Assembly (NCBI GenBank): GCA_016875225.1
Contig: VGRW01000005.1
Location: forward strand, 2,936 to 66,935
DNA length: 64,000 nt
Direction of reading: 5' to 3'
DNA from: Deltaproteobacteria bacterium
GTDB lineage: Bacteria; Myxococcota_A; UBA9160; SZUA-336
Both the position numbers and the translations under genes were made by a program. A model generated the notes under the pieces. The model ran no database searches. It had not been told where the DNA came from and was given only the letters and a program-made list of their open reading frames with translations. Shown here one piece after another: positions 7,875 through 36,596 of the stretch. How positions within the stretch are numbered: the first letter of the stretch is position 1; each line of letters starts with the position of its first letter.

Positions 7875-7889
7875 TCGAGTCCTCCCGCT

Positions 7890-8555: not shown

Positions 8556-8563
8556 CGCGACCC

Positions 8564-9415
8564 TCAGGTCTCCAGAGCGCGCGCCGGATCGGCGACCACG
8601 TCCTTCTCGGGCGGCGTCTCGACGCTCGGCTCGCCACCCGTGAGCTCGAGCAGCGCCTGGCGCAAGCGCGGCCCGTCCAGGTCGGCGCGGATCTCTCCGC
8701 CGGCGACCAGCGCGATCCTCCCGGACTCCTCCGATACGACCACGACGAGCGCGTCGGTCTCCTCGGTGAGCCCGACCGCCGCACGGTGGCGCGTGCCGAA
8801 CGCGCTCGGGAGGTCACCGCGCGTCGCGAGCGGCAGGATGCAGCCCGCGGAGAAGACGCGGCCCCGGCGCACCACGACCGCGCCGTCGTGGAGCGGGGAG
8901 TACGGCAGGAAGAGCGAGATCAGCAGGTCGCGCGAGAGCTCGGCGTCCAGCACCGTCCCGTCCTCGACGAACTCGTCGGTCTGCAGCTCGCGCTCGATCG
9001 CGATCAGCGCCCCGACGCGGCGCTGCGCGAGCGCCTGACAGGCGCGCACGATCTCCTCGATCGCGTGGGCCTGGTGCATTCGCGCCGGCGCGAACAGCCC
9101 GCGACCGACGCGCGTCAGCGCGCGGCGCACGTCCGCCTGGAAGATCACGATCAGGATCAGCAGGCCCGAGGACAGGAAGTTGTCGAGCAGGAACGAGACG
9201 GTGGCGAGCTCCAGCAGGTCCGAGAGCCGCCAGGCGAGGACCAGCACCAGCAGGCCGAGCGCCATCTGCGCGGCGCGCGTGCCCTTGATGCGCATCAGCA
9301 GCCAGTACACGCACCACGCGACCACGAGGATGTCGAGCGAATCGCGCAGCGGCTGGAAGTTCTCGGCAAAGCTCTCCCAGCGCTCGAGCAGCCAGGTGTA
9401 GACGAGCCAGGTCAA
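8564..9415 (-). CDS. cdaA: diadenylate cyclase CdaA (DisA_N/DAC domain, membrane-anchored)
   Basis: Three N-terminal TM helices, then DAC motifs HDGAVVV, GTRHRAAVGLTEETDALVVVVSEESGRIAL. 4-nt overlap with folP. Confidence 0.9.
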   Translation of the reverse strand: MTWLVYTWLLERWESFAENFQPLRDSLDILVVAWCVYWLLMRIKGTRAAQMALGLLVLVLAWRLSDLLELATVSFLLDNFLSSGLLILIVIFQADVRRALTRVGRGLFAPARMHQAHAIEEIVRACQALAQRRVGALIAIERELQTDEFVEDGTVLDAELSRDLLISLFLPYSPLHDGAVVVRRGRVFSAGCILPLATRGDLPSAFGTRHRAAVGLTEETDALVVVVSEESGRIALVAGGEIRADLDGPRLRQALLELTGGEPSVETPPEKDVVADPARALET

Positions 9416-18938: not shown

Positions 18939-18981
18939 CAGCCGCGCGCGGGTCCGGTTAGTGTTCTGCGCCCGCGAGTCT

Positions 18982-21442
<2,461 letters not shown>

Positions 21443-21940: not shown

Positions 21941-22485
21941 GCCGCGATCTCGAGCCACCCGGAAGAGACCGACTTCAGACCGCCGCGATCGTTCTGCGCT
22001 CCCTGCCACACCGCGATCGCGAGCTTGCGCTGCGCTTCGAGCAGCGCCCAGCCCTCGAGCTCGAACAAGAGCCGCCAGCGTCCGCTCTTCCACTCCGCGC
22101 TCGCGCGCCAGCCCGCCGGCGCCGCCGCGCGCGTGACGGTTCCGAGGCCTTGGGCGCTCACACCGAAGAGCGGCTCGCGATCGGCGCGCCAGAGCGCCCC
22201 CTCGACGGATTTCCCTGGCGCGCCCATCGTGAGCCACGGCGCATCGGCGACCGACGGCGCGAGAACCGCCGCCGCGTCGGTGAATCGATCGACGTCGTCG
22301 GCGAGCGCGCGCGGCTCTTGCGCGCAGGCCCAGACCAGCTCGACCCGCCACAGACTCCCGGACTTCGAGGTCTCGAGCTCGACGACCGGGGTTCGCGGCG
22401 CGTCTCGCCCCACGTAGGCGACCGGGACGTACCCGCCGGGAGACATCCCCGTCGGCGCAGCGATCAGCGAGACCTTGCGGCGCAT
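21937..22485 (-). CDS. candidate gamma subunit (EB_dh / ethylbenzene-dehydrogenase-gamma-like haem-b protein) of the type II molybdoenzyme
   Basis: 182-aa non-junk, Trp-rich ORF in operon position after beta. ATG shares its A with the beta TGA stop. Possible haem ligand residues (WLTMGAPGK, K near the C-terminus). No convincing own signal peptide. Assigned by position and composition only. Confidence 0.5.
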   Translation of the reverse strand: MRRKVSLIAAPTGMSPGGYVPVAYVGRDAPRTPVVELETSKSGSLWRVELVWACAQEPRALADDVDRFTDAAAVLAPSVADAPWLTMGAPGKSVEGALWRADREPLFGVSAQGLGTVTRAAAPAGWRASAEWKSGRWRLLFELEGWALLEAQRKLAIAVWQGAQNDRGGLKSVSSGWLEIAA

Positions 22486-23513
22486 CAGAGCACCTCCCGC
22501 TTGCGCGGGCCGAGCGCGAAGTTCTGGTTCCAGTCGTAGGCGATCAGAAGATCCATGAGCTCGCTCGGCTCTCCGCTGCGGCGTTTGGCCCGCTCGGCTT
22601 CGAGCGTCGCGAGCACCTCCGGCACGCGCTCGCCGAACAGGCTCACCAGGTAGCGGGTCGGAATTCGCGGCTCGTCGGTGGGACGCCCCTGCGCATCGAG
22701 CTTGGGCGGGCTCATCGGCATGACGTAGAAGACGTTCGGGCCGAGCTCGAACTCGGGGTGCAGCGGAAGCGCAACGCGGTGCTTGTGGACGAGCTTCCAG
22801 ATCGGCCCGGCTTCGTCGTCGAGATAGCCGACGAAGCGCAGTCGCCCCGGGCACTGCCGCGCGCACGCCGGCGCGACGCCCTCCTCGATTCGCGGCAGAC
22901 AGAAGATGCACTTGGTCGAGACCTGCCGCAGCGGATCGAAGTAGACCTTCTTGTACGGGCACGCTTCGACGCAGAAGCGGTAGCCGTGGCAGCGATCCTG
23001 ATCGACCAGCACGATTCCGTCCTCGTCGCGCTTCTCGATCGCATGACGCGGACAGGCGTCGAGGCAGGCCGGGTGCGTGCAGTGGTTGCACAGGCGCGGC
23101 AGGTAGAAGTAGTGGTTGTCCTGCGGGTACTCGCCGGCGCCGCGATCCTCGTCCCAGTTCGCGCCCCAGTGGGGCTTCTCGTTCGGGCGCAGCCACGGCT
23201 TGCCCTCGCCCTCGCCTGCGCGCTTTCGCACCTCGTCGTGATTGAAGGTCCAGGCGCGCCCGTAGTCGTCGTCGAGCGTCGGGATCCGGCCCGCCTTCAC
23301 TCCGCCGTCGGGCGTGCGGCCGCCGCTCTCGCCCCAACCGCGCGGATAGCCGGCGCCGGGGAGCGTCTCGACGTTGTTCCAGTACGCATAGCCCGTGCCG
23401 GTGTCCTTGTTCCAGAGCTTCTTGCAGGCGATCGTGCACGTCTGGCAGCCGATGCACTTGTTCAGGTCGAGCACCATCGCGATCTGTCGCTTCACCGGAT
23501 TCGCGTTCGCCAT
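22485..23513 (-). CDS. molybdoenzyme beta (electron-transfer) subunit, 4x[Fe-S] NarH/EbdB-type
   Basis: MANANPVKRQIAMVLDLNKCIGCQTCTIACK (NarH-like N-terminus). Four cysteine clusters: CIGCQTCTIAC, CNHCTHPACLDACP, CHGYRFCVEACP, CIFCLPRIEEGVAPACARQCP. 342 aa, the size of the EbdB/SerB/ClrB/DdhB/PcrB class rather than the 510-aa NarH. Confidence 0.9.
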   Translation of the reverse strand: MANANPVKRQIAMVLDLNKCIGCQTCTIACKKLWNKDTGTGYAYWNNVETLPGAGYPRGWGESGGRTPDGGVKAGRIPTLDDDYGRAWTFNHDEVRKRAGEGEGKPWLRPNEKPHWGANWDEDRGAGEYPQDNHYFYLPRLCNHCTHPACLDACPRHAIEKRDEDGIVLVDQDRCHGYRFCVEACPYKKVYFDPLRQVSTKCIFCLPRIEEGVAPACARQCPGRLRFVGYLDDEAGPIWKLVHKHRVALPLHPEFELGPNVFYVMPMSPPKLDAQGRPTDEPRIPTRYLVSLFGERVPEVLATLEAERAKRRSGEPSELMDLLIAYDWNQNFALGPRKREVL

Positions 23514-23515
23514 GG

Positions 23516-26485
23516 CTAGGACTCCTGCGCCGCGCGGATCGCATCGACCGCGTCGGCCCTTCGTGGACGGATCGCGACCCGCGTGTCCTGCACCTGCGTG
23601 CCCGGCGCCCAGACGCCGAAGCGCCAGCGCAGCTGGCCCTCGCCGCCCGCGAAGTGGAGCGGGTTCATCAGCCCAGGCGTCACGAACTTGTAGCTCTCGT
23701 GCTTCGGAAACTGGTGCGGCTCCCAGGCGTGGAAGTAGTAGGCGACCCCCGGCCGGACCATCGACGAGTGCTTCACGCGCATGAACACCAGCCCGAAGCG
23801 GTTCTCGAGCTCGGCCCATTCGCCGTCGGCGATCCCGAGCCGCTCCGCGTCGCGCGGGTTCAGGTAGAGCGCCGGCTCGCCGCGCTGCAGTCGCAGAAGC
23901 ATGGGATCGTCGCGCCAGACGCTGTGGATGCTCCAGCGCGCGTGACACGAGATCAGCTGGAACGGCAGGTCCCCCCCCGCCTTCGGGCTCTCGATGTGGG
24001 ACGGGAGCGCCTCCCCGGCCTGCAGGAACCAGGGATGATCGACGTAGAACTGCTGTCGACCGGTGCGCGTGGGCCAGGGCCACTTCTCTTCGGTGAAGTG
24101 GGTGCAGGCGCGCAGCACGCCGTCGCCCTTCCAGGAGTCGTTCCAGAGCTGCGCCTGACCGCCCGGTCCGCCCGCGCCCTTGAACTTCTCGACGCCGGTG
24201 CGCTCGAGCCCCGCGACGGTCATGCCCTGGGTCGTGCCCGAGCTGTCGAGGATGTGCTGCATGACCTTGTCGGTGTCTTTGGGGCCGAACTCGCCATGGT
24301 ACGAGAAGCGATCACCGATCGTGGTGAGATCGACCTCGAGCTTCCCGCAGCCGGGCAACACCGGCGTTCCGCGCTCTCGCGCGACCCGCTGCACCTGCTG
24401 CGCCAGACGCCAGAAGATCTCCCACTCGTCCTTCGAGTCGCCGACCGGCGGCACCGCGGCGTCGCAGTAGTGGAGGTAGGGGATGTAAGCGACGGTGTAC
24501 TTGATGCCGCGCTTCTCGTAGTAGCCGGCGGCGGGCAGCAGGTAGTCGGCGTGCATTCCGGTGAACGTGAACTTGGGATTCACGTCGACCACCAGGTCCA
24601 GCGCGGGCCAGAGGTGCTCGAGCGAGCGCTGCGGAAGATTGGAGCGGCGAAGCACGTTGTTGCCGCCGGTCACCCAGGCGCGGGCCGCCTTGGTCGGGAA
24701 GCGCGGCATCCAGCCCTTCTCGCGCGCCTCGCGGTCGTAGTCGGTGAGCGGACGCGGATAGAGGTTCGCCTGCTCGCGGTCGAGATCTCCGGCGATTCCC
24801 TGGTAGCCGAGATTCAGGCTCGCGGCGTTTCCCACGCACGCCAGCTCCTCGGTCATCTCCGCGGCGAGGTCCCAGACGGCGAGCTGCGTGCTGATCCGAC
24901 CGCGCACGCGCTCGACCGCGAGGTCGAAGAGCGTGCTCATGTCGAGGTGCATGAAGAGCTCGAGCCGCCCGCGCATGCCGGTGTGCGACCCGATGCCGAG
25001 CCCGCCCGTCTCGATCCAGCCCGTGGAGTGGTAGCCCGAGCCCTTCCGTCCCACCGCGCCCTTCAGCGACAGGCAGAGGATCTTCGCGCGGTTCATCTGG
25101 TCGGAGTGGAAGAAGCGGTTCGAGCCCCAGCTCGACAGCACCATCGGCCGCTTCGCGCGCGCGAAGCCCTCGGCGAACTTCTCGATCTGCTCGGGGGCGA
25201 GTCCGGTCACTTCTGCGCTGGCCTCGAAGCTCCACGGCTCGAGGTGCTCGCGGAGCAGAGAGCCGACGGGAACGACCACGGTCTCGCTGCCATCGCGAAG
25301 CTTCACGCTGAAGCGGCCCTCGATCGGCGGAGCGAGCGCGCCGCCGCCGAGCCGCGGCTGATCCGTGTTGGTCGGAGCGCCCGGGGCGGCGACCGGAGCG
25401 CCCGCCTTCGCGTCCCAGACGTACACCAGCTCGCGTCGCCCGGCCTCGAGCAGATCCGCCTCGTTCAGGAAGCGGCCGGTGTCCAGTCGCACCAGGATCG
25501 GCAGGTCGGTCTGCTCGCGGACGTAGTCCAGATCGATGCGGCCGGTGTTCCAGATGTGCCGCGCGGTCGCCAGCGCCAGGGCCGCGTCGGCCCCGGGCCG
25601 GATCGGAATCCATTGATCCGCGTGCACGGCGGTGGCGCTGTACTGCGGATCGATCACCACCAGCTCGGCGCCGTTGTACTTCGCCTCGAACAGGAAGTGA
25701 GCGTCGGGGATCTGAGTCACGGCCGGGTTCATCATCCAGACGACGAGATAGTCGGAGAGGAACCACTCGTCGGAGCTTCCGCCGACGTGGGGAAAGCCGA
25801 ACGTGATCGTAGCGCCGTGGTTCAGATCGCCGATCTCCGCCCAGTCGTCGGAGAGCGTGGCTCCGGCCAGGCCGAAGAAGCGCACCCGCCCGGCGGTGGT
25901 CGGGCCCTGGTCGAAGTGGGGGCCGAGATCGTGGATGATGCTGTCGGTGCCGTCCTTCTCGGCGATCGTCACCAGCTTCTCCGCGATCTCGCGCAGCGCG
26001 TCGTCCCAGGAGATCTGCTGCCACTGACCGCCGCCGCGCGGGCCTACGCGCTTCAGCGGAACGGTGAGTCGGCTCGGGCCGTACATGACCTCGGTGTAGC
26101 AGGCGCCCTTCTGACAGCCGCGCGGATTGAAATCGGGAACACCGGGCTCCGAGGCGGTGTAGCTCGCGGTCTGCTCCTCGCGGACGACGATCCCGTCCTT
26201 CACGTACAGGTCGAAGTTGCACGCGCTGCGGCAGTTCAGCCAGCCGTGCGTTCCCTTCGCGACGTGGTCCCAGCTCCAGCGCTGCCGGTAGAGATCCTGC
26301 CAGCTGCCGAGCTTGGTCGGATCGCGCGCGACGCTTCCCGCCGGGAGCTCGGCCGCGATCGCCTCTTCGCGGAGATGCAGGAGCGGAAGTCCGCCCACCG
26401 CGGTCGCGGCCGCCGCCATGCCGGAGAGCTTCAGGAAGCGGCGTCGGTCGAGCCACGTGAAGCGCGAGCCACTGGCGACGGTCAT
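23516..26485 (-). CDS. molybdopterin (Mo-bisPGD) oxidoreductase alpha subunit, type II DMSO reductase family, Tat-exported
   Basis: 989 aa. Twin-arginine signal LDRRRFLKLSGMAAAATAVGG. N-terminal FS0-type motif HGWLNCRSACNFDLYVKDGIVVREEQ (H-x-C-x3-C as in NarG/EbdA). Ends 3 nt before beta. Confidence 0.92.
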   Translation of the reverse strand: MTVASGSRFTWLDRRRFLKLSGMAAAATAVGGLPLLHLREEAIAAELPAGSVARDPTKLGSWQDLYRQRWSWDHVAKGTHGWLNCRSACNFDLYVKDGIVVREEQTASYTASEPGVPDFNPRGCQKGACYTEVMYGPSRLTVPLKRVGPRGGGQWQQISWDDALREIAEKLVTIAEKDGTDSIIHDLGPHFDQGPTTAGRVRFFGLAGATLSDDWAEIGDLNHGATITFGFPHVGGSSDEWFLSDYLVVWMMNPAVTQIPDAHFLFEAKYNGAELVVIDPQYSATAVHADQWIPIRPGADAALALATARHIWNTGRIDLDYVREQTDLPILVRLDTGRFLNEADLLEAGRRELVYVWDAKAGAPVAAPGAPTNTDQPRLGGGALAPPIEGRFSVKLRDGSETVVVPVGSLLREHLEPWSFEASAEVTGLAPEQIEKFAEGFARAKRPMVLSSWGSNRFFHSDQMNRAKILCLSLKGAVGRKGSGYHSTGWIETGGLGIGSHTGMRGRLELFMHLDMSTLFDLAVERVRGRISTQLAVWDLAAEMTEELACVGNAASLNLGYQGIAGDLDREQANLYPRPLTDYDREAREKGWMPRFPTKAARAWVTGGNNVLRRSNLPQRSLEHLWPALDLVVDVNPKFTFTGMHADYLLPAAGYYEKRGIKYTVAYIPYLHYCDAAVPPVGDSKDEWEIFWRLAQQVQRVARERGTPVLPGCGKLEVDLTTIGDRFSYHGEFGPKDTDKVMQHILDSSGTTQGMTVAGLERTGVEKFKGAGGPGGQAQLWNDSWKGDGVLRACTHFTEEKWPWPTRTGRQQFYVDHPWFLQAGEALPSHIESPKAGGDLPFQLISCHARWSIHSVWRDDPMLLRLQRGEPALYLNPRDAERLGIADGEWAELENRFGLVFMRVKHSSMVRPGVAYYFHAWEPHQFPKHESYKFVTPGLMNPLHFAGGEGQLRWRFGVWAPGTQVQDTRVAIRPRRADAVDAIRAAQES

Positions 26486-26579
26486 GTTCGCTTCTCCCGC
26501 CGCATCGAGGTGCGGATCTTCTTCGCGGATTCTGAACGACCCGCTCGCTCGGGTCGAGCGCGCGAGCGACGCCGCAGAC

Positions 26580-27224
26580 TCAGACGCCCTTCGTCTCCGC
26601 GCCCCAGACGTACTTGTGGACCTGCAGATTGAGCCGCACCCAGAGTCCGTCCTCCTGGATCCAGCCGGCGAGGTCCCGAGGATCGAGCACGCCGTGCACC
26701 GGCGAGAGGTTGACCGGCACGCGATTCTCCAGCCGATGGGCGCGGATCAGCTGCACCGCCCAGTCGTAGTCCGCGCGATCCCGGAGCACGAACTTCAGCT
26801 CGTCACCGGCGCGAAGTCGAGTGAGATTCCCGAGATCGTTTCGCGCGACCATCCCGCTGCCGGGCGTCTTCACATCGACGATCGCGTGCGCGCGGGGGTC
26901 GAGCACCGAGATGTCGTGGTGTCCGCCGGTCTCGATCAGCACCGTGTAGCCCGCGTCGCAGAGCTGCCGGACCAGCTCCGGCACGGCCTTCTGCAGCAGC
27001 GGCTCCCCGCCGGTGAGCTCGACCATTCTCGTCCCGAGCCCCGCCACGCGCGCCAGCACGACGTCGATCTCGAGCAGGTCTCCGCCGCTGAACGCCTGCG
27101 GCTCGTCGCAGTAGCTGCAGCGGATGTCGCAGCCCGACGTGCGCACGAAGACGCACGGCCAGCCCTCGCGGGTCGATTCGCCCTGGATCGAGCGGTAGAT
27201 CTCCTTGACGCGAAGCGCCGGCAC
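26580..27224 (-). CDS. queE: 7-carboxy-7-deazaguanine synthase QueE (radical SAM)
   Basis: VPALRVKEIYRSIQGESTREGWPCVFVRTSGCDIRCSYCD (QueE N-terminus with the CxxxCxxC cluster), C-terminal LQVHKYVWGAETKGV. GTG start at 27224 sits 5 nt after the upstream gene stop. Confidence 0.88.
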   Translation of the reverse strand: MPALRVKEIYRSIQGESTREGWPCVFVRTSGCDIRCSYCDEPQAFSGGDLLEIDVVLARVAGLGTRMVELTGGEPLLQKAVPELVRQLCDAGYTVLIETGGHHDISVLDPRAHAIVDVKTPGSGMVARNDLGNLTRLRAGDELKFVLRDRADYDWAVQLIRAHRLENRVPVNLSPVHGVLDPRDLAGWIQEDGLWVRLNLQVHKYVWGAETKGV

Positions 27225-27229
27225 GGAGC

Positions 27230-29905
27230 CTAGCCGTAGAGAACGGAGCGATGGCGCACGATCTCGCCGATCAGCGTCTCGAATCGCTCCGGGTGCTCCG
27301 GCAGGCCGTCGATCCGCGCGCGGCCGATCCGATCGCCCCCGCTCTTCGGAATCACCCAGGGCTGGTGCTGGCCGACGGCGTCGATCAGGCCCGAGACGTT
27401 CAGCGGCCGTTTCTCGTCGTTGCAGGACAGCACCACGAGGTCGTCGCCCTCGACCGTCGCGAGCGACAGCCGCGCGCCGGTGCGCAGGCGCAGCCGGCGG
27501 CCGATCTCGCCCGGATCGAGGTGGGACGGCACGCGCGCCACCGCGAGCTGGTACTCGCCGAAGTGCACCATTCGCGGGTCGTTCTCCGCGACCCAGTCCG
27601 TCTCGGCGCGATAGACGTCCGGAGCCGAGGGCAGGTCGGTCGGCTTGCCGTTCAGCACGGCGACGATCTCGGCACGGTGCTCGCCGGGAGTCTCGGCCAG
27701 GCGCTTGATCAGCGCGATCACTCGGTTGCCCCATTTCTGCATGTCGGTCTCGGAGAGCCGGCGCGCGGAGAGGTCGACCAGCTTGTCGGTGAAGCGGCTG
27801 CGCCGCTCGGTCACCTCGCAGACCGCCCCCAGCGGGCTCGTCGCGTTCTCCTCGATCACGATCGAGTCGCGGCCGAGCACCGCTCGCAGGCGCACCAGAT
27901 CCTCGATCGCCCACTCGTGGTGGTCGAACCACTGCAGCCGTCCGCGGAACAGCTCCGCGGTGTCGAGGACCTCCTTCGGACGCGGCTGCGCGCTGTAGCC
28001 GACGACCAGCACGTCGACGTTGTCTGCGATGTCCGTCGCCGGTCCCTTGAAGAAGTCCATCAGGCCTTCTTGCGGCGCGACCCGGAACGACACGATCGTG
28101 CGTCGGTCGCGCGCCAGGACGAGCGCGGCCAGGATCGAGTCCGGGTCGTCGCGCACGAGGATTGCGGCGCGCTGTCGGCGCGCACGCGGCGGAGACACCT
28201 CGACCGGCTCCGCGGCCGGACCGGTCTCCGATTCTTCCTCACCCTGCGCGAGGGTCGCCTCCATGTCGCTCGAGAGCGCCTCGTCGGGAGCCGGCGCCTC
28301 GCCCGGCTCGAGCTCCTCGCCGCCGAATGCCCGCGCTTCGCCGTCGCTGCCAGCCTCGCGCGACTCCAGCGCCTCGGAGTCGGCTTCCGCCCGCTCTCCG
28401 GACACGATCCGCGCGCCTCTTCGGCCGCCTCGGCGTCTTCGGCCGCGCCGTCCGCGCCGAGGCTCCAAACCGTCCGATTCCTCCCCGGCCGCGCGAGTCT
28501 CTGCATCGGCCTCGGGCTCGAGCTCGGCCTCGAACGGCGCGCGGGAATCGAGCTCTCCTTCCGCGGCCGGCTCGGCTTCGGTCGATTCGCCGCGCAGCTC
28601 CGCCGCGCGGCGCGCCTCGCGACGGGCATTGCGCTCTTCCTCCGCGCTGGCCGCGTCGTACACGCGCGCCGACGACTCGGCTGTCCCTCGATCGCCGCCG
28701 CGGCCGCGGCGTCGCCCCCGCCGCCGACCGCCCCGACGCTCGGATCGACCGACGTCCTCACGCAGATCCTCGGAATCGAGCGCTGTCTCGGCCTCCGGCA
28801 GCGTCTCGCTCGCATAGGCGCGCATCGGCTCGGTCGGAAGGCGGCGCTCCCCGATCGGACCCGCGACGGCCTCGAGGATCTCGCGCGCCTCGTCCGAGAT
28901 CGAGTCGCTCGAGACGAAGATTCGCGGATCCCCGACCGCGCCCGGGCTCCAGACCTCGCGCTCGAGGTCGAGCAGATGCCAGCCAGCGATCAACCCCGGG
29001 ACGTCCGCTACGTCGAGGCTCGGCCGGATGGCACCGACGACGGGCCGGCCCGCGATGTCGATGCCCACCCAATCGATCGCGTCGCTGCCCTCCTCGTTCC
29101 ACGGCAGCCAGCGCGCCGTGACTCCCGCGTGCGCCTCGTCCGCGCAGCTCTCGACCAGCGCATCGCGCCGCGCTGCGGCGCCCTCGAGCAGGCTCGGGTC
29201 GTCCGCGAGTCGCACGACCCATTCATATAGATCCGCTCCGATCCGGGCGAAGCTCGCGTCGTTCGCGCGAATCGTTCGCCGCTCGGGAAGCGCGACGGAG
29301 ATCACGACCTCATCGCCTTCGACGCTGACCCGGGCAGCCCGCTCGCCGCGCACGTAGAAGAGATGATCCGGGCCGGCCGGGCGCACGCCGGCGGCGCCCG
29401 AGACGGCGGCCGCCCCCTCCAATACCCGCAACACCCGCGCCAGCACACTCGTGCTGCCGCCGATCAGTGACGGCCTGGCCGGAGCCGGGTGGCTCTCGAG
29501 CTGACAGGCACCACCGTCCTCGGCGAGCGCGGGCAGCGTCAGCAGATGCACCGACGGACCGCGCTCCGCCGCCCGCGACGCGGCGCGACGGGTGCGCTCG
29601 GAGAACTCCGGCGCCGCGATCAGGACCTCGGCGAGGCTGCGCCCTGCGCCCGCGCGCCGCGCGGCGATCCGCGCCCAGCCGAGCAGGTCGAGACCCTCCC
29701 GGCGGCTCGCCAGCAGCGCGATCGGGCGGCTGCCCTGCCAGCGGGCTGCACCGGCCTCGAGATGCTCGGGAAGCTCGTCGAAGTTCTCGAGCTCGCGAAC
29801 CTCGCGCAGATCGACACCGTGCAGATTGCGAAGCCGATCGAGCAGACTGCCGTTGTTGCTGCTCCGACCGAACCAGCGACCGGCTCCCCAGCCTCGCTTC
29901 CTCAA
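27230..29905 (-). CDS. large hypothetical protein: folded N-terminal region, ~250-aa Arg/Gly- and Glu/Asp-rich low-complexity linker, C-terminal DHH/DHHA1-like phosphoesterase motifs
   Basis: 891-aa ORF with high GC3, whereas the antisense ORFs are His/Arg/Asp junk. The central stretch SERRGGRRRGRRRGRGGDRG...EPRRGRRGRRRRGGRRGARIV is interleaved with acidic runs. The C-terminus has DDPDSILAALVLA (motif I-like), VDVLVVGYSA, WFDHHEW (DHH), KSGGDRIG (GGGH-like). Confidence 0.7.
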   Translation of the reverse strand: MRKRGWGAGRWFGRSSNNGSLLDRLRNLHGVDLREVRELENFDELPEHLEAGAARWQGSRPIALLASRREGLDLLGWARIAARRAGAGRSLAEVLIAAPEFSERTRRAASRAAERGPSVHLLTLPALAEDGGACQLESHPAPARPSLIGGSTSVLARVLRVLEGAAAVSGAAGVRPAGPDHLFYVRGERAARVSVEGDEVVISVALPERRTIRANDASFARIGADLYEWVVRLADDPSLLEGAAARRDALVESCADEAHAGVTARWLPWNEEGSDAIDWVGIDIAGRPVVGAIRPSLDVADVPGLIAGWHLLDLEREVWSPGAVGDPRIFVSSDSISDEAREILEAVAGPIGERRLPTEPMRAYASETLPEAETALDSEDLREDVGRSERRGGRRRGRRRGRGGDRGTAESSARVYDAASAEEERNARREARRAAELRGESTEAEPAAEGELDSRAPFEAELEPEADAETRAAGEESDGLEPRRGRRGRRRRGGRRGARIVSGERAEADSEALESREAGSDGEARAFGGEELEPGEAPAPDEALSSDMEATLAQGEEESETGPAAEPVEVSPPRARRQRAAILVRDDPDSILAALVLARDRRTIVSFRVAPQEGLMDFFKGPATDIADNVDVLVVGYSAQPRPKEVLDTAELFRGRLQWFDHHEWAIEDLVRLRAVLGRDSIVIEENATSPLGAVCEVTERRSRFTDKLVDLSARRLSETDMQKWGNRVIALIKRLAETPGEHRAEIVAVLNGKPTDLPSAPDVYRAETDWVAENDPRMVHFGEYQLAVARVPSHLDPGEIGRRLRLRTGARLSLATVEGDDLVVLSCNDEKRPLNVSGLIDAVGQHQPWVIPKSGGDRIGRARIDGLPEHPERFETLIGEIVRHRSVLYG

Positions 29906-29986
29906 ACTGTGTCCTCCCGCATAGCGGCGCCAACTCTATCCGCCACGACGACCGCCGCCAGGGCGCCGTCCATGGCGCGAGCGCGT

Positions 29987-31084
29987 CTAGACGTGGGTGT
30001 GTGGGTCGAAGAGCCGATCGTGCTCGTCCATCGCGAAGCGGTCCGTCATCCCGGCCACGTAATCCACGATCGCGCGCTCCTCCGGCTCGCCTCGCGCGCG
30101 GTCGAGCACGTGCGGCGGCAGCTGGCGGGGGTCCGCCGCGTACGCGCGCCACAGGTCCCCCAGGATCCGCTCGGCCTTCGCTGCCATTCGCACCACTCGG
30201 TGGTTCCGGTAGAAGTTCTCGAGCAGGTAGCGCGCGAGCTCGCGCTTCTCGGCGGCGATCTCGCGCGAGAGTCCGATCAGCGGCTCGGCTGCGGCGCAGG
30301 CCTCCGCCGAGGATCTCGGCGCCGCTCGCTCGATCCGCTCGGCGCTGGACTCGATCAGATCGCTCACCAGCAGGTCGATCAGGATCACCGTGACCCGGGG
30401 GCGGAGCGTCCGCTCCGCGGCGTCGTCTTCGTCGCGGAGCAGCCGGCTCGCCCGGCGGAACAGCGCGAGCCCCGCGAGCCCGTCCCAGTCCAGCAGATCC
30501 GCGCGAAGACCGTCGTCGAGGTCGTGGGTGTGATAGGCGATCTCGTCGCAGACGTTCGCGATCTGCGCCTCCACGGTCGGCCCGACTCCCAGGTCCGGCA
30601 GCGGCACGGGGTGCGCGTAGCGGGGGAAATTCGAGCCGTGCTTCAGGATGCCCGCGCGCGTCTCGGCGGTGAGATTCAGCCCCGGGTAGCGCTCCGAGCG
30701 GTCCTCGAGCCAGTCGACGACGCGCAAGCTCTGGCGGTTGTGCTCGAAGCCGCCGTGCCCCTTCAACAGGTCGTGGAGCACCCGCTCACCCGCATGGCCG
30801 AAGGGCGGATGACCGAGGTCGTGCGCGAGCACGATCGCCTCGACGAGGTCCTCGTTGGCTCCGAGCGCTCGCGCGACCGTGCGCGCGATCTGCGCGACCT
30901 CGAGGGTGTGTGTGAGGCGGTTCCGGAAGTGATCGCCCTCGTGGTACGGGAAGACCTGCGTCTTGTACTGAAGCCGACGGAACGCCCGCGCGTGAAGGAC
31001 GCGATCGCGGTCGCGCTGGAAGACGGTGCGATACGGGTGCTCCGGCTCGGGCTCGATCCGGCCGCGCGAGTCGCGCGCGCGCAC
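29987..31084 (-). CDS. dgt: dGTP triphosphohydrolase-like HD-domain protein
   Basis: RTVFQRDRDRVLHARAFRRLQYKTQVF, HTLEVAQIART, HDLGHPPFGHAGE, D...D of the HD domain. 365 aa. Confidence 0.9.
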   Translation of the reverse strand: MRARDSRGRIEPEPEHPYRTVFQRDRDRVLHARAFRRLQYKTQVFPYHEGDHFRNRLTHTLEVAQIARTVARALGANEDLVEAIVLAHDLGHPPFGHAGERVLHDLLKGHGGFEHNRQSLRVVDWLEDRSERYPGLNLTAETRAGILKHGSNFPRYAHPVPLPDLGVGPTVEAQIANVCDEIAYHTHDLDDGLRADLLDWDGLAGLALFRRASRLLRDEDDAAERTLRPRVTVILIDLLVSDLIESSAERIERAAPRSSAEACAAAEPLIGLSREIAAEKRELARYLLENFYRNHRVVRMAAKAERILGDLWRAYAADPRQLPPHVLDRARGEPEERAIVDYVAGMTDRFAMDEHDRLFDPHTHV

Positions 31085-31146
31085 CGCATACGGAGCGAGG
31101 CTCTCGTTTTCCCGAGCCTCGATCGCGCTCCTGGTCCGCGGAATCG

Positions 31147-31446
31147 CTATGGCGCCCTCGTCTTCTCCTCGACCAATCGATCGAGCTTTGCGCGCTCCGC
31201 CGCGCTGAACTGCTCCGCGGCGCGCTCCGGAGGCGCCGTCGACACTGGAGGCGGCTCGGAGCCGACACCGGCGACGCGTTCGGCGGCCTTGCCGCCGAGT
31301 GTGCGCGCCGTCGCCTGCACGCCCTTCACGAGCTCCGCCGCCGTGCGAACGCGCAGGCTGAGCGTGCGCGTGTTCGCTTCCCAGCGCGTCTCGACGAGAA
31401 GGAAGGCCGCTCCCAGCAGGACGAGCAGGAACAGGAGGCGGAACAC
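31147..31446 (-). CDS. small membrane-anchored hypothetical protein
   Basis: 99 aa with N-terminal TM helix MFRLLFLLVLLGAAFLLV, between HIT and dgt. Confidence 0.5.
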   Translation of the reverse strand: MFRLLFLLVLLGAAFLLVETRWEANTRTLSLRVRTAAELVKGVQATARTLGGKAAERVAGVGSEPPPVSTAPPERAAEQFSAAERAKLDRLVEEKTRAP

Positions 31447-31493
31447 TCGAATCGACCTCGCGGCGTACGCGCCGAGGCCAGTCTAGGTCAGGG

Positions 31494-31844
31494 CTATCCG
31501 GGCGGCCAGCCGAACGTGCGCCCGCCGAGCAGGTGCAGATGAAGGTGATACACGGTCTGTCCGGCCGCGCCGCCCGTGTTCATGACGAGCCGGTAGCCCG
31601 CATCGGCGAAGCCGAGCTCGCGAGCCAGGCCCGTCGCGGTCTGCACCAGTTCACCGACGAGGGCGTGATCATCCGCACCGATCTCGAGGGTGCTCGCGAT
31701 GTGCTTGCGCGGAATCAGCTGCACGTGCGCCGGCGCCTGCGGGTGGATGTCCTCGAAGGCCACGATGCGCTCGCTCTCGAAGACGATTCGCGCCGGCAGC
31801 TCCCGGGCGGCGATCCGGCAGAACAGACAGTCTCGCTTCATCAC
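31494..31844 (-). CDS. HIT-family (histidine triad) nucleotide hydrolase
   Basis: CLFCRI...HIHPQAPAHVQLIPRKHI...GQTVYHLHLHLLGG (HxHxHxx motif). Confidence 0.9.
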   Translation of the reverse strand: MMKRDCLFCRIAARELPARIVFESERIVAFEDIHPQAPAHVQLIPRKHIASTLEIGADDHALVGELVQTATGLARELGFADAGYRLVMNTGGAAGQTVYHLHLHLLGGRTFGWPPG

Positions 31845-31879
31845 GCCCTCGCTGGAGTGCGCGCGAGTATACTCGCCCC

Positions 31880-32977
31880 GTGCGCCATCTCGAAATGCCG
31901 GAGCGCCTGCTTCTCGGTCCCGGACCGAGCAACGTGAGCGAAGAGGTGCGCGCGGCGCTCGCGCTTCCGCTCGTCGGCCATCTCGATCCCGCCTTTCTGG
32001 ACCTGCTCGACGAGGTGCAGCGACAGCTGCTCGCGCTGTTCCGCGCGCCCGACGGCGCGCTCGCGCTGCCGATCTCGGGAACCGGCAGCGCGGGAATGGA
32101 GGCGTGCCTGGTCAACCTGCTCGAGCCGGGCGACGGCCTGCTCGTCGCGGTGAACGGGGTCTTCGGCGAGCGGCTGGCCGCGATCGGCGAGCGCTGCGGC
32201 GCGCGGCTGCTGCGCGTCGAGGCGGAGATGGGCGAGATCGTTGCGCCAGAGCGGATCATCGCGGCGATCGAGGCGCACCGCCCCGAGGTCGTCGCGCTCG
32301 TCCACGCCGAGACGTCCACCGGAGTCGCGCAGCCCGTGAAGGAGGTTGCCGCTGCGGCGCGGGCGTCCGGTGCGCTAGTCGTCCTCGATTGCGTCACTTC
32401 GCTCTCCGGCATGGACGTTCGCATGGACGAATGGCAGATCGACGCCGCCTACTCGGCGACACAGAAGTGTCTCGCCTGTCCGCCCGGCCTGTCCCCGCTC
32501 GCGATCGGCCCGCGCGCGATCGCGCGCCTGGAGCGCAGACGGCGGCCGGTGCAGAGCTGGTATCTCGATCTCTCCCTGATCGGACGCTACTTCGGAGCGC
32601 GGCGCGTCTATCACCACACCGCGCCGATCTCGATGATCTTCGCGCTGCACGCCGCGCTGTCACGCGTGTTCGCGGAAGGGCTCGAGCAGCGCTTCGCGCG
32701 CCACGCCTCGGCGCACGCCCGTCTGGTCGCCGGGCTCGAGCCGATGGGTTTTCGGATGCTGGTTCCCGCTCGGTACCAGCTTCCGATGCTCTCCGCCGTG
32801 CTGCCGCCGTTCGACGACGAGTCGGCGGCGCGCCGGCGGCTTCTCGACGAACACGGCATCGAGATCGGGGGCGGGCTCGGTAAGCTCGCGGGAAGGATCT
32901 GGCGCATCGGCCTGATGGGCGAGAACGCGCGGCCGGAGGTCGTGGACCGACTGCTCGCCGCGCTGAGCCGGCTCTAG
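31880..32977 (+). CDS. class V aminotransferase (alanine-glyoxylate / serine-pyruvate aminotransferase family)
   Basis: GPGPSNV, PISGTGSAGMEA, YSATQKCLACPPGLSP (PLP Lys region). 365 aa. The start may be the M at 31895. Confidence 0.9.
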   Translation: MRHLEMPERLLLGPGPSNVSEEVRAALALPLVGHLDPAFLDLLDEVQRQLLALFRAPDGALALPISGTGSAGMEACLVNLLEPGDGLLVAVNGVFGERLAAIGERCGARLLRVEAEMGEIVAPERIIAAIEAHRPEVVALVHAETSTGVAQPVKEVAAAARASGALVVLDCVTSLSGMDVRMDEWQIDAAYSATQKCLACPPGLSPLAIGPRAIARLERRRRPVQSWYLDLSLIGRYFGARRVYHHTAPISMIFALHAALSRVFAEGLEQRFARHASAHARLVAGLEPMGFRMLVPARYQLPMLSAVLPPFDDESAARRRLLDEHGIEIGGGLGKLAGRIWRIGLMGENARPEVVDRLLAALSRL

Positions 32978-35004
32978 AAGGACGGGGCCAGCGTGATGCC
33001 CGCGTCGGAGCTGCGGTGCGGCGCCGCGGAGATGCCGTCCAGACCCACGGCCAGTCTCGCCTCGACAGGGAAGTAGCGCGAGATGCCGAGCCAGCGCGCG
33101 AAGGGAATCACGAGCGAGGCGCGCGGACCGAACGTTCCGACCTCGACGGCGACGCGGGCGTGGTCGAGGCTCGCGCGCGCGCCGATGCCAAGCTCGCCAT
33201 CCGCATCGCCGTTCGCGTAGAACATCGGGTCGTAATCGCGACGGATCTCGATGCACGGCGTCTCGGGCGGACAGGAAAGGCTCTCGCCTCCGAGCGCACG
33301 CTCGGCCAGGAAGCTCTCCTCGCGACGCTCGAGCTCGACCGCGCCAGCCATGTGCGAGCGTTGCCCGTCCACCAGCGCCGCTTGGAACGCGTCGGCTCCG
33401 GACGCGAGCTCGACGCGCCAGGGGCGCGCGACGAGCGACCGCCCTGCCCGGACCCGCGCGTCCATCCGCCGCAGATGGCCCAGGACCCCGCCCGCGCTCT
33501 CGCCGCGGGCCGAGAGCGTCGCGTCCTCGATGCCGCTCGCCAGACCCGCCAGAAGCGCGAGCGATCGGGCCGTCGGTATTCGCGAGCCCGCTTCGACCGG
33601 CCGACCCGATTCGGTGTCGAGCGAGATCAGGAATGCCGCGGCGTCGGAAGTAAGCCCGTCCAGCAGCTCCGGCGCCGCTCCTTCGAGCGCCGCGCGCGCG
33701 ACCACGACTCGCGTCGCAGCGAGGCGCGTCCACGCCGTCTTCGAGTGCGGCAGCACCAGGACTCCATCCTGGAACGCCGCGGCGCGCGGGCGGCTCCGCT
33801 CCTGGGCAGCGAGCGATTCGAGGCACGACGCCGCTTCGGCCGCCCGTTCGCCCTCGGGAGCGAGCTCGAGGTAGCGCCGCGCCGCGCTGCCAAGCGCGCG
33901 GCCCTCGGGCTGCCAGGAGCGCCAGGCCCGCGCCGGCGCATCGATCACCAGATTCGCCGGGCTCAGGGCCGCGCGCCAAGCCCGATACGACTCGCGCCAG
34001 GCTTCGAAGCCGTCGCGACTCAGCGCGAGCGCATCCGTCGCCGAGGGCACGGCCGTGGTGGAGAGCTCCTCTCCACCCACCCAACCGAGCGCGCGACGAG
34101 TCCGATACAGGTCGAGCTCGGTCTCGAACGCGGCATCCGGATCCACGCTCGGATCGACGAGCCACTCCGACGCGAGCTTCGCGGCCCGATCGCGTCCACG
34201 CGCGATGCGCCTCAGTTCGTCGAGGGCGCGATCGCGATCGCCGCGGAGATGGCGCGCCGCCGCGCGGGCCAGAGCGGCATCGCTGGAATCGATCGGTCCC
34301 AGCTCCTGCGCGCGCGCGAGGTCGTCGAGGAGCAGCGCGGTCCCGAGCTGAACCTCCCAGGCCGCGATCGAGAATTCCGAAGCAACCGCCTCCGACTCCG
34401 CCTGCTCGTCCAGCAGCGCGCGCCATTCCTGCTCGTCGATCTCGTCGAGCAGGCGGTCCGCGCGCGTCGAGCCGGGCTCGAGCGCGAGCGCGCGGTCGAC
34501 GGTTCGGCGCGTGCGCCGGAGATCACCGGCTCCGAACGCGCGTTCGGCCTCGGAGAGCAGCTCCGCGACGCGAGCCTCGCTCTCGCGCCGCTCCAGGCGC
34601 GTGAAGAGCGCGAGGCTCGCGGCGTCGAGCTCGCCGCTGCGAGCGCCGGGCCCGAGCAGAACCATCGCCTCGTCTTCCGCCAGGCTCCGGTCATCCCAGT
34701 CGCGCAAGCCACGCCCGACCCGCCCGACAGAGCGCAGCAGCTTGAGCGGCGAGACTTGTAGCGATGCGTGGATCCCGAGGTCGACGATCTCCGCGGAGAG
34801 ATCTGCGAATTTCCTGCGACGCTCGGCCGCGAGCAGCTCCGAGGCCTCGCTGGCGCGCGCCTGGTCGCTGCGAAGCTCGGGCGCGAGGAGCAGACTCGCC
34901 GCCTCCTCGCCGACATCGAGCTCGCCCGCGCGGCTGCTCGAGCCGGACGCGAGCGAGAGCACGAGCACGGCGATCGCCAGCGCGATGCGCGGATCAGTGC
35001 GCAT
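32974..35004 (-). CDS. secreted hypothetical protein, helical N-terminal region and C-terminal beta-rich segment ending in Phe (outer-membrane-protein-like)
   Basis: Signal peptide MRTDPRIALAIAVLVLSLASG. 676 aa. The C-terminal ~100 aa have alternating hydrophobic residues and a terminal F (ITLAPSF). Confidence 0.65.
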   Translation of the reverse strand: MRTDPRIALAIAVLVLSLASGSSSRAGELDVGEEAASLLLAPELRSDQARASEASELLAAERRRKFADLSAEIVDLGIHASLQVSPLKLLRSVGRVGRGLRDWDDRSLAEDEAMVLLGPGARSGELDAASLALFTRLERRESEARVAELLSEAERAFGAGDLRRTRRTVDRALALEPGSTRADRLLDEIDEQEWRALLDEQAESEAVASEFSIAAWEVQLGTALLLDDLARAQELGPIDSSDAALARAAARHLRGDRDRALDELRRIARGRDRAAKLASEWLVDPSVDPDAAFETELDLYRTRRALGWVGGEELSTTAVPSATDALALSRDGFEAWRESYRAWRAALSPANLVIDAPARAWRSWQPEGRALGSAARRYLELAPEGERAAEAASCLESLAAQERSRPRAAAFQDGVLVLPHSKTAWTRLAATRVVVARAALEGAAPELLDGLTSDAAAFLISLDTESGRPVEAGSRIPTARSLALLAGLASGIEDATLSARGESAGGVLGHLRRMDARVRAGRSLVARPWRVELASGADAFQAALVDGQRSHMAGAVELERREESFLAERALGGESLSCPPETPCIEIRRDYDPMFYANGDADGELGIGARASLDHARVAVEVGTFGPRASLVIPFARWLGISRYFPVEARLAVGLDGISAAPHRSSDAGITLAPSF

Positions 35005-35905
35005 GGCCCTTCACTTCCTCGTGGACGGCGAGCAGCGCCTCGATCCGCGTCCGCGCCTCGCGGCGGAGCGCGGGCTTGTGGTCCTCGCCCGCCAGCTCGT
35101 AGGCCGAGAACGCCTGATCGAGGAGCGAGTCGTATCGCTCGACGTCGAGATTCGCGATTCGCGCCCTCGCCCGCACCCGCTCGCGCCGCGCCGCATCCGC
35201 GTACAGATCGCCGAGTCGCAGCAGGTGCTTGCCGAAGAGCTTCGATTCGCGATGCGTCTCGATCAACGTCCGGCAGGCGCCGATCGCGTCGACGAGTCTG
35301 CCGGCGCGCTCCAGCCCGTCGACGCGCAGGACCTCCCAGCTCTCCGCCTCCTCGCGGGCCAACGGCTCCTGCGGAGTCCCCCGTACGTCGAGCGAGAGGC
35401 TTCGCCAGACCGCGAGTCGGCCTTCGACGAAGAGCAGCTCCTCCTCCGCGCTCGCGAAGGGTCGCTCGGGCGCGGCGGAAGCGGCGGCGAATTTCTCGAT
35501 GCTCTCCAGCCGCTCCGCGGCCGCATCGCCCAGCAGCGACCCGGACTCCTTCACGCGCGAATACGCGCGCGCCGCGTCCTGGTAGCGGCGCAGTCGTTCG
35601 AGCGCCTTGCCGCGGGCGAACTCGATCACGTAGTCGGCGTTCTGCCATTCGGATTCGGCGCGCGCTCGCTGCGCCGCGAGACGATCGAGCTTCCAGAGCG
35701 CGACGGAGTAGACGTCGTTGCCACCGGGTCCGACCGCTCGATCGAAGCGGTACGTGTCGTCTTGCATGTGCATCTTCAGCTGCGAGACGACCGCCGTCAG
35801 CGAGTCGTGCGCGCCGGCGGCGTCGCGTTCGCGCTCGCTCTGCGAAGCGCTCGCGCAGCCGACGAGCCAGCCGAGAACCGGGGCCACGAGCGCGATCTGT
35901 CGCAT
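34994..35905 (-). CDS. hypothetical lipoprotein
   Basis: ATG at 35905 gives MRQIALVAPVLGWLVGCASAS (lipobox LVGC). 303 aa, helical. 11-nt overlap with the downstream secreted-protein gene. Confidence 0.6.
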   Translation of the reverse strand: MRQIALVAPVLGWLVGCASASQSERERDAAGAHDSLTAVVSQLKMHMQDDTYRFDRAVGPGGNDVYSVALWKLDRLAAQRARAESEWQNADYVIEFARGKALERLRRYQDAARAYSRVKESGSLLGDAAAERLESIEKFAAASAAPERPFASAEEELLFVEGRLAVWRSLSLDVRGTPQEPLAREEAESWEVLRVDGLERAGRLVDAIGACRTLIETHRESKLFGKHLLRLGDLYADAARRERVRARARIANLDVERYDSLLDQAFSAYELAGEDHKPALRREARTRIEALLAVHEEVKGHAH

Positions 35906-36101
35906 GCGTCCCACGCCGTCACGAGGCTGCAGCTGTCGTGCCGGAGATCGGGAATCGGCAGCTCGCAGGCAGCTCCCGACGCAACCCGGCCCGGCTCGAT
36001 ACGGGAATCGCGCCTCGCCGACCGCTACTGCGAAGCGGCGTGCGCGGGGCGAAGCGGGGCGCACGTCCGAGTTGCGCGGATGCTGCGGATCCGCCGCCGG
36101 A

Positions 36102-36596
36102 TCAGCGCTCCAGCCAGTCCTCCGGCACGCCTGCAAGCGACGCCTCGACCCTCAGGTCTCGCAATCGCTGGCGCGAGGCTTCGAGCGACTGGCGATCGCG
36201 GCGCAGCTGAGCCCGGAGCTTCAGGACCTCCGGATCGGTCGCCTCGCCCCCGGCCGGGGAGTAGTTCCAATCCCCCGCCGTCGTCTTGCGCAGTCGCTGC
36301 TGACCGACCTCTACCTTCGACTCGAGATCGGTCACCTCGTAGTTCGCGCGCTCGAACGCGTCGCGCCATTCGGCGCGGTCACGGCCCCCGTAGCGGGGCT
36401 CCGCCGAAGGAGCGTCGCTCATGCTTCCCGGCGGCCGGAGCAGCCGCTCCAGATCGAGCGGCGGGGATGGCTCGTGCTGCGGCGCCGGGGACACGTCCTC
36501 GGGACCGATGTCGCCCCCGGGCGGTGGCGCCGATTGCGCCCACCCGTAGCCAGGGCAGATCAGCAGGAGCAGCAGGCAGAGTCGGGCGGAGTGCAT
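36102..36596 (-). CDS. small secreted hypothetical protein (Pro-rich N-terminal region, coiled-coil C-terminus)
   Basis: MHSARLCLLLLLICPGYGWAQS signal peptide. 164 aa. This is the only non-junk part of the 893-aa antisense ORF. Confidence 0.5.
   Translation of the reverse strand: MHSARLCLLLLLICPGYGWAQSAPPPGGDIGPEDVSPAPQHEPSPPLDLERLLRPPGSMSDAPSAEPRYGGRDRAEWRDAFERANYEVTDLESKVEVGQQRLRKTTAGDWNYSPAGGEATDPEVLKLRAQLRRDRQSLEASRQRLRDLRVEASLAGVPEDWLER

Follow-up and report, generated by a model that had tools for sequence, protein, structure and literature searches.

The stretch of DNA analyzed here, called the window below, comprises 64,000 nucleotides (nt) of contig VGRW01000005.1 (positions 2,936 to 66,935 of the forward strand) from the Deltaproteobacteria bacterium assembly GCA_016875225.1, which the GTDB places in Myxococcota_A (UBA9160; SZUA-336). 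Between positions 26580 and 31844 its minus strand holds five co-directional genes, which encode a HIT-family protein, a small membrane protein, a dGTPase (dgt), an open reading frame (ORF) of 891 amino acids (aa) and a QueE-like radical S-adenosylmethionine (SAM) protein (Table 1). In this paper we looked at the 891-aa ORF, for which an initial annotation had proposed a folded N-terminal region, a charged disordered linker and a C-terminal domain of the DHH superfamily. Structural models and alignments of its homologues suggest that proteins of this family consist of two nuclease folds, one NucS-like and one RecJ/Cdc45-like, whose catalytic sites are incomplete and which are connected by a disordered linker that is rich in arginine and acidic residues.

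The 891-aa ORF as a conserved gene

Among 5.8 billion proteins searched, 58 homologues of the 891-aa protein were found, nearly all of them 800–1020 aa long and a few truncated. All are hypothetical proteins from metagenome-assembled genomes (MAGs) of Myxococcota, and a precomputed Pfam domain is found in none. Their alignment shows a constant order, in which an N-terminal domain is followed by a charged linker that cannot be aligned and then by the C-terminal domain. In a scan of one genome per GTDB species the gene was found in 194 genomes, and an exhaustive search of 1.84 billion cluster representatives with a profile of the C-terminal domain recovered only 184 proteins at E <= 0.001. For the genomic context, 80 loci of species-representative genomes were listed by tblastn and six annotated loci were examined. 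All 80 come from uncultured assemblies, 78 of which are titled MAG, and most are labelled Myxococcota or Deltaproteobacteria. The gene and its synteny also appear in MAGs titled Spirochaetales, Geobacter, Desulfobacterales and Gammaproteobacteria (L035, L036, L040, L049, L052, L067, L069 and others); since the close relatives of these carry Myxococcota labels, such record names are probably unreliable.

No match to the 891-aa ORF was found in Pfam, NCBIfam (whole ORF and each half) or PADLOC. One explanation that has to be considered for so long an ORF is that it is an artefact, either a frameshift or assembly fusion of two genes or a spurious reading frame, as high-GC DNA gives many long spurious ORFs and several of them overlap this locus. 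This explanation is effectively refuted. More than 55 full-length homologues from independent assemblies run in one frame throughout and 194 genomes carry the gene, which excludes the two-gene reading and bears out the earlier proposal of one conserved gene. Its G+C content at third codon positions (GC3) is 0.86, typical of real genes here, and both of its folded domains are predicted with high confidence. The start is backed by a Shine-Dalgarno sequence, GGGAGGA, located 6 nt upstream of the TTG codon, and by the N-terminus MRRRxxRRRR, whose conservation among the homologues supports the TTG start. An origin from a mobile element or a defence system was also considered and was rejected: the plasmid and phage collections contain no copy of the gene, its distribution is vertical and syntenic, and the neighbouring dGTPase fits the housekeeping model and not the anti-phage one. 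The family is chromosomal and restricted to uncultured Myxococcota, its distribution is that of a vertically inherited housekeeping gene, and the gene is apparently operonic.

More remote relatives were also found. Standalone relatives of the C-terminal domain, ~331 aa in size (P0175, P0179, P0180, P0185, P0187 and P0191, at L089 and L091-L095), were detected at E 1e-13 to 1e-16 and match no Pfam family. P0136 (L090:343-3249), with P0146 listed alongside, is a remote member of full length (968 aa) whose source organism has a lower GC content. Both the standalone relatives and P0136 are found on short contigs or among unrelated housekeeping genes, a context that gives no functional hint.

The C-terminal domain

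The AlphaFold2 model of residues 572-891 has a predicted local distance difference test score (pLDDT) of 90.9 and a predicted template modelling score (pTM) of 0.88, and shows the DHH/DHHA1 two-lobe fold, in which a helical hinge connects a parallel-sheet DHH lobe to the DHHA1 lobe. In Foldseek its best 33 matches are all DHH/DHHA1 proteins (E 9e-8 to 5e-5, probability 1.00), with alignments of 357-477 columns against the 320-residue query. The template modelling scores are low (0.3-0.44), which probably reflects a different angle between the lobes. The best matches include Cdc45 (6cc2, 8q6o, 3jc6), RecJ-Cdc45 (7bhi), GAN, RecJ and RecJ2, and the matches to NrnA, PAP phosphatase, PggH and TM1595 are equally good.

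Profile methods do not recover this fold. The isolated C-domain (574-891) gave no Pfam match at E <= 10, so that the DHH/DHHA1 profile match by which the proposal was to be checked is missing; the whole protein gave none at E <= 1 and NCBIfam none at all. The C-domain profile found only a chance myoglobin match among the PDB sequences, and a widened profile only 7bhi, at a non-significant E of 2.5, with ISHNDADGLSAAGVVARA aligned to the motif I region (DADG) of that structure. Comparison with E. coli RecJ by hhalign gave a probability of 0.7%, that is, no similarity. The two-lobe fold proposed initially for the last 240 aa is thus borne out by structure prediction and Foldseek over a longer region of ~313 aa (579-891), yet the catalytic signature that was read into it is incomplete.

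The residues of the putative active site were counted in the 56 family members that have a C-domain. Position 587 of motif I is acidic in 56/56 and position 589 in 50/56. In the model, D587-P-D589, which lies in DDPDSILAALVLA (residues 586-598), directly follows strand 1, and D661-H662-H663, which lies in WFDHHEW (659-665), directly follows strand 4 (657-661); the ends of these two strands are the canonical positions of DHH motifs I and III. The DHH triad is whole in 47 of the 56 members and is replaced by DRQ, GRQ, DRR, DRA or DSG in the other nine, which still keep the gene and its genomic context. The motif II Asp, a metal ligand in DHH enzymes, had been assigned to D631 of VDVLVVG (630-636). 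This residue opens strand 3 (631-635) and is Asp in only 35/56, while the equivalent at the strand end, as deduced from the order of secondary structures, is G636, which is Gly in 56/56. The GGGH motif is described as common to all DHH-DHHA1 proteins (PMC9779919). Like all other peptides quoted in the initial annotation, the string SGGDRIG (855-861), described there as GGGH-like, is located in the 891-aa ORF, but GGGH itself is absent from the whole family: the position holds GGDR (856-859) in the window's clade, D-x-D-H in the distant clade and neither in the standalone relatives. Position 859 is Arg or His in 55/56.

The strongest conservation is found elsewhere in the domain. E668, D669, D707 and D858 are invariant in 56/56, all residues of RRSRFTDK (701-708) are invariant save for T/S at 706, and R803, R806 and R862 are invariant in all 55 sequences with a residue there. 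D707 can be considered a candidate motif IV Asp; it is present in 56/56 of the core family and is not conserved in P0136 and the standalone relatives. The latter keep a PDxDG motif I and have SAR in place of DHH, and P0136 reads DHV at this position and has no RRSRF motif. When the alignment is widened by these sequences the invariant set is R599, F619, W659, W665, D669, G678, L709, W725 and A811, which includes no canonical catalytic motif residue. The arginine-rich invariant signature is compatible with phosphate or backbone binding. Given Gly at motif II in 56/56, the replaced GGGH, the loss of DHH in 9/56 and SAR in the standalone relatives, the earlier label of a DHH enzyme (nanoRNase, pAp phosphatase or cyclic di-AMP (c-di-AMP) phosphodiesterase) is unwarranted for the family and is a possibility only for the 891-aa protein itself.

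The N-terminal module and the linker

The AlphaFold2 model of the N-terminal module has a pLDDT of 82.9, with low confidence at residues 1-17, 142-151 and 361-372, and shows three sub-domains (Table 1). The region had been described as a folded part of ~400 aa that belongs to no family; it is folded, over residues ~20-355, and it does contain recognizable folds, a YjbR/frataxin-like domain and a NucS-like PD-(D/E)XK domain. The best structural match of the N-domain is NucS, and the predicted structure of the NucS-like sub-domain contains the alpha-beta-beta-beta-alpha core of restriction-endonuclease-like proteins. The segment IDWVGIDIAGRPVVGAIR (277-294) fits the pattern of strands 2 and 3 of NucS. 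D278 is kept in 52/56 members. The (D/E) position (A292 of the 891-aa protein) holds A, V, S, L, T, F, I or M and is acidic in 0/56, and the Lys position of (D/E)xK is Arg in 53/56. A profile search with the N-domain yielded nothing beyond fragments of this family.

The two folded modules are joined by a linker of 223 aa that contains 18% R, 20% E, 12% G and 0% K, with a fraction of charged residues of 0.43 and a net charge of -17. Its two poly-Arg/Gly (R/G) tracts, RRGGRRRGRRRGRGGDRG (residues 390-407) and RRGRRGRRRRGGRRGAR (residues 483-499), are both embedded between acidic stretches. The local segregation of charges lies 4.5 standard deviations above shuffled sequences, a value reached by 0/500 shuffles, and the confidence of the structure model is low at the linker edges. 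In the homologues the linkers are 167-316 aa long, and their composition is kept while their sequence cannot be aligned. One to six R/G blocks occur in 57/58 tabulated sequences, the exception being the truncated P0037, and in nearly all homologues an R/G tract comes right after the N-domain. In P0136 the R/G-plus-acidic segment is N-terminal and a short linker connects the two folded modules, which suggests that the property of the segment, and not its position, is selected. The disordered R/G and acidic nature that the initial annotation gave to this region is therefore conserved; its length, put there at ~250 aa, is corrected to ~220 aa (356-578).

Gene string and conservation of gene order

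The five co-directional genes of the string were already noted in the initial annotation, with spacings of 81 nt from the dgt stop to the TTG start (29905) of the 891-aa ORF and of 5 nt from its TAG stop to the queE GTG (27224), and the gene calls agree with this. The 5-nt gap is compatible with translational coupling. A sigma-70-like promoter match upstream of the HIT gene (0.2 expected from shuffles) is the only such match in 26300-32200, and no convincing terminator was found within the string; the lone promoter match and the lack of an internal terminator are weak evidence for one transcription unit. Riboswitches and other RNA elements were sought in the string and none was found, the only Rfam match in the whole window being a tRNA.

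The dGTPase scores 424.2 bits on its NCBIfam model (cut-off 390) and 239 bits on the anti-phage dGTPase model, which is under the cut-off of 400. The QueE-like protein scores 260.6 bits on TIGR04349, under the cut-off of 300, and this is its top match by a wide margin. For the HIT protein the top NCBIfam match, purine nucleoside phosphoramidase, is under the model's cut-off. The 99-aa protein has no match in Pfam, NCBIfam or PADLOC, and its homologues in the same position were detected in the closer clade only.

Table 1. Features of the gene string and of the 891-aa protein (window positions, except where a locus is named)
Feature	Coordinates	Strand	Remarks
Sigma-70-like promoter match upstream of HIT gene	31866-31893	-	9/12 hexamer positions
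HIT-family (HinT-like) nucleotide hydrolase gene	31494-31844	-	116 aa; Pfam HIT, E 2.5e-23
99-aa protein gene, hydrophobic N-terminal segment	31147-31446	-	
dGTP triphosphohydrolase gene (dgt), HD and HD_assoc domains	29987-31084	-	365 aa; NF002326
891-aa ORF	27230-29905	-	Single gene; TTG start, GGGAGGA Shine-Dalgarno
Folded N-terminal module, residues ~20-355, three sub-domains	28841-29848	-	AlphaFold2 model
Alpha+beta sandwich sub-domain, residues ~154-240	29186-29446	-	YjbR/frataxin/CyaY-like
PD-(D/E)XK (NucS-like) nuclease-fold sub-domain, residues ~243-355	28841-29179	-	Without canonical catalytic acid
Disordered linker, residues 356-578	28172-28840	-	Blocky polyampholyte
Poly-Arg/Gly tract 1, residues 390-407	28685-28738	-	
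Poly-Arg/Gly tract 2, residues 483-499	28409-28459	-	
DHH-like lobe and helical hinge, residues 579-777	27575-28171	-	D587-P-D589, G636, D661-H662-H663, RRSRFTDK
DHHA1-like lobe, residues 778-891	27233-27574	-	GGDR (856-859) where GGGH expected
QueE-like radical SAM gene (queE)	26580-27224	-	214 aa; GTG start; TIGR04349
~385-396-aa gene of related loci	L002:6322-7512, L003:6802-7989, L005:6477-7643, L006:6663-7850, L007:6751-7908		

The locus survey confirms the linkage of the 891-aa gene to dgt and queE, which had been pointed out from the window, and shows it to be strongly conserved. In 79/80 loci the gene directly downstream, on the same strand, is QueE-like, with an apparent spacing by tblastn of -7 to +139 nt, and dgt lies upstream in 57/58 loci that have enough flank. 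The conserved order is dgt, often a ~390-aa gene, the family gene and the QueE-like gene. A divergent class-V aminotransferase is found in 56/58 loci, while the HIT gene occupies its position in only 13/58 related loci. As the outer flanks differ between clades, the core string is more conserved than its surroundings, and the QueE-like adjacency persists even in loci with different flanking genes. Such linkage does not by itself show a shared pathway.

The ~390-aa protein is encoded between dgt and the family gene in 41/58 loci and is missing from the window and its closest relatives; it matches no Pfam or NCBIfam model and no copy of it occurs anywhere in the window. The idea that it is a detached piece of the 891-aa ORF was rejected, as BLASTP shows no similarity between the two. 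Some loci also have a ~117-aa gene of no assigned family or a CutA1 gene. The only one of the 80 loci with neither dgt upstream of the family gene nor a QueE-like gene downstream of it is L084 (CP070734.1, 31793-44758). By eye, from ORF translations, it appears to retain the downstream PlsX, DUF58 and MoxR-type neighbours of the distant clade. On QueE models the radical SAM protein of that clade reaches only ~75 bits, and glycyl-radical activase models give it ~40-50 bits. A further que or dpd gene was seen neither in the gene calls of the six annotated loci nor in the window ORFs scanned, and no replication or repair gene lies within the conserved core of the annotated loci.

Other features of the window

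Directly downstream of queE lies a 989-aa molybdopterin oxidoreductase gene with a twin-arginine-like N-terminus (23516-26485, minus strand), followed by an ORF with Cys clusters typical of a 4Fe-4S subunit (22485-24083, minus strand); in L001 a TetR regulator gene is inserted between queE and the oxidoreductase. Beyond the divergent aminotransferase, on the minus strand, are two ORFs of 676 and 380 aa (32974-35004 and 34994-36136) with coding-type GC3 and no Pfam match, and L001, L003 and L007 have pairs of genes of about this size in the corresponding place. A tRNA-Met (CAT; 18981-19058, plus strand) lies immediately upstream of a ThiC gene (19193-21442, plus strand); no thiamine pyrophosphate riboswitch was found at the Rfam gathering threshold anywhere in the window. 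A canonical c-di-AMP synthesis string on the minus strand (6498-9415) includes cdaA (DAC and CdaA_N domains, 8564-9415), noted earlier as encoded in this genome and located here, a YbbR-domain regulator gene (7890-8555) and a gene of the phosphoglucosamine-mutase type (6498-7874), with FolP-like, FtsH and TilS genes upstream of it.

Discussion

The function that fits our models best, with a probability that we put at about 45%, is that of a nucleic-acid-binding scaffold, so that what is common to the family would be independent of DHH catalysis. According to this mechanism the invariant arginines (the RRSRF motif, R803, R806 and R862), together with the R/G tracts, would touch the phosphate backbone of single-stranded RNA or DNA, while the acidic blocks may mask the R/G tracts intramolecularly or bridge molecules. 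The degenerate nuclease folds would serve for binding or docking, a role like that seen in Cdc45 and in those archaeal RecJ homologues that are inactivated. The outcome would be a multivalent, regulated binding or clustering, as described for the disordered C-terminus of RNase E. In the window's clade a residual or atypical metal-dependent phosphoesterase activity is possible. A bolder proposal, which we consider unlikely, is that the protein is a bacterial counterpart of the Cdc45-type pseudo-nucleases, a scaffold of two nuclease folds that are both catalytically disabled. Its blocky R/G-plus-acidic linker would drive RNA- or single-stranded-DNA-dependent clustering and would organize enzymes of nucleotides and nucleic acids such as the apparently co-transcribed dGTPase and QueE. 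If true, it would represent a new class of bacterial condensate scaffolds unrelated to RNase E.

Several points weigh against the scaffold function. We infer nucleic-acid binding from the charge and the folds alone. Despite an identity of only ~40%, 47/56 members keep the DHH triad, and D661, D707 and D858 vary little or not at all; metal binding or catalysis could be the constraint behind this. In the N-terminal module the invariant D236 might replace the missing PD-(D/E)XK acid, and PD-(D/E)XK enzymes are known to relocate catalytic acids. A generic scaffold also does not explain the conserved adjacency of queE and dgt.

As the main alternative, the clade with DxD and DHH, to which the window belongs, could have an atypical but active phosphoesterase, and we regard this as a real though clearly less probable option. 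The protein would then be a highly divergent DHH/DHHA1 enzyme (a nanoRNase or dinucleotidase, a pAp phosphatase or a c-di-AMP phosphodiesterase) whose linker concentrates RNA or localizes the enzyme. The fold is the right one, D587, D589 and D661-H662-H663 occupy the strand ends where such residues are expected, D707 and D858 are invariant, and the Arg or His at 859 in 55/56 might mimic the GGGH His; the best argument is that both His residues are retained in 47/56 at ~40% identity. RLRLR (804-808) resembles the RxRxR motif of NrnA, which contacts the RNA backbone (PMC9779919), and genes for c-di-AMP synthesis (cdaA, cdaR and glmM) are present at 6498-9415. Yet no DHH/DHHA1 profile matches and nothing is significant against the PDB sequences, the motif II Asp is absent in 56/56 and GGGH is absent as well. 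Moreover, the nine members without the His pair keep the gene and its context, and the standalone relatives have SAR for DHH. Motif strings alone are insufficient to annotate the family as a c-di-AMP or nanoRNA phosphodiesterase.

The same structural matches raise the option of an accessory factor in DNA repair or replication, RecJ/Cdc45- and NucS-like, that binds or processes single-stranded DNA and is tied to the control of the deoxynucleotide triphosphate pool by the dGTPase. Cdc45, GAN, RecJ-Cdc45, RecJ and RecJ2 are among the best structural matches, NucS, a mismatch and branched-DNA endonuclease, is the best match of the N-domain, and dgt is upstream in 57/58 loci. We hold this option to be rather unlikely: enzymes of RNA and nucleotides match equally well, so the fold cannot discriminate DNA from RNA, both nuclease sites are degenerate, the conserved core holds no replication or repair gene, and R/G tracts are more typical of RNA binding. 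Less probable still is that the protein is a partner of the QueE-like enzyme in deazapurine (queuosine/7-deazaguanine) metabolism, for example by presenting a nucleic-acid or nucleotide substrate or by recruiting QueE. It would explain why the QueE-like gene follows in 79/80 loci, in the window after only 5 nt, and why this adjacency survives a change of the flanks. Yet the six annotated loci and the scanned window ORFs have no further que or dpd gene, L084 has the family gene without an adjacent queE, and the radical SAM protein of the distant clade reaches only ~75 bits on QueE models. This lineage is, besides, generally conservative in its order of genes, as seen from PlsX, TgpA and MoxR, which recur downstream in the distant clade.

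Literature searches found no description of this family or of its three-part architecture. The DHH/DHHA1 and PD-(D/E)XK superfamilies are known, while the family, its degenerate sites and the three-part architecture are unannotated in the libraries searched. If our reading of the nucleic-acid-binding scaffold is true, the DHH/DHHA1 superfamily gains, through an unannotated family, a bacterial branch whose active site is degenerate and which is combined with a degenerate PD-(D/E)XK domain and a charge-blocky disordered linker. The repeated change of RecJ nucleases into structural proteins, known from archaea and eukaryotes, would then have a parallel in bacteria. As all carriers are uncultured, heterologous expression will be needed in order to test this.

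Comparison with known systems

The closest precedent is offered by Cdc45 together with archaeal RecJ homologues whose DHH domains are inactivated. RecJ homologues of this kind were described by Makarova et al. 2012 (PMC3307487), and the inactivated archaeal homologues and Cdc45 are structural components that have conserved gene contexts and retain some catalytic residues (PMC3307487). Like Cdc45 and the archaeal homologues (arCOG00428, arCOG00432 and RecJdbd), the 891-aa gene is retained in a conserved context, which is consistent with a structural or binding role (PMC3307487), and structures of Cdc45 and RecJ-Cdc45 (6cc2, 8q6o, 3jc6 and 7bhi) are among its best matches. Unlike them, the family is bacterial (Myxococcota) and neither archaeal nor eukaryotic, the surroundings of the gene showed neither MCM nor GINS, and the protein is fused to a PD-(D/E)XK module via a 220-aa R/G-plus-acidic linker; the sequence similarity between the two groups is undetectable by profile methods.

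With the enzymes NrnA, Pde2, GdpP, PggH and pAp phosphatase the protein shares DxD and DHH at the expected strand ends and an Arg-rich stretch in the DHHA1 lobe. It differs from them in that the family has no Pfam DHH/DHHA1 match, an invariant Gly instead of the motif II Asp and no GGGH, and that DHH is dispensable in part of it. The N-terminal module shares with NucS/EndoMS and other PD-(D/E)XK proteins the alpha-beta-beta-beta-alpha core and a conserved Asp on strand 2, and the hDhhGxDxxGxPVV pattern of the family resembles that of the NucS catalytic domain. Unlike in NucS/EndoMS, the acid of (D/E)xK is missing throughout and Arg takes the Lys position, we identified no N-terminal domain of NucS in the 891-aa protein, and the PD-(D/E)XK domain is embedded in a module of three sub-domains that is found only in this family.

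The linker can be compared with the disordered C-terminus of RNase E, which acts as a scaffold for client proteins and for RNA-dependent condensates (degradosome and BR-bodies; PMC13405055, PMC13616956). RNase E differs in its RNase E/G catalytic domain, which the 891-aa protein lacks, and the segment of the latter is internal, between two folded modules. The likeness is that both are long, low-pI and disordered, with Arg-rich patches that alternate with acidic patches. The 891-aa protein is a candidate for studying how disordered regions mediate organization in bacteria beyond RNase E.

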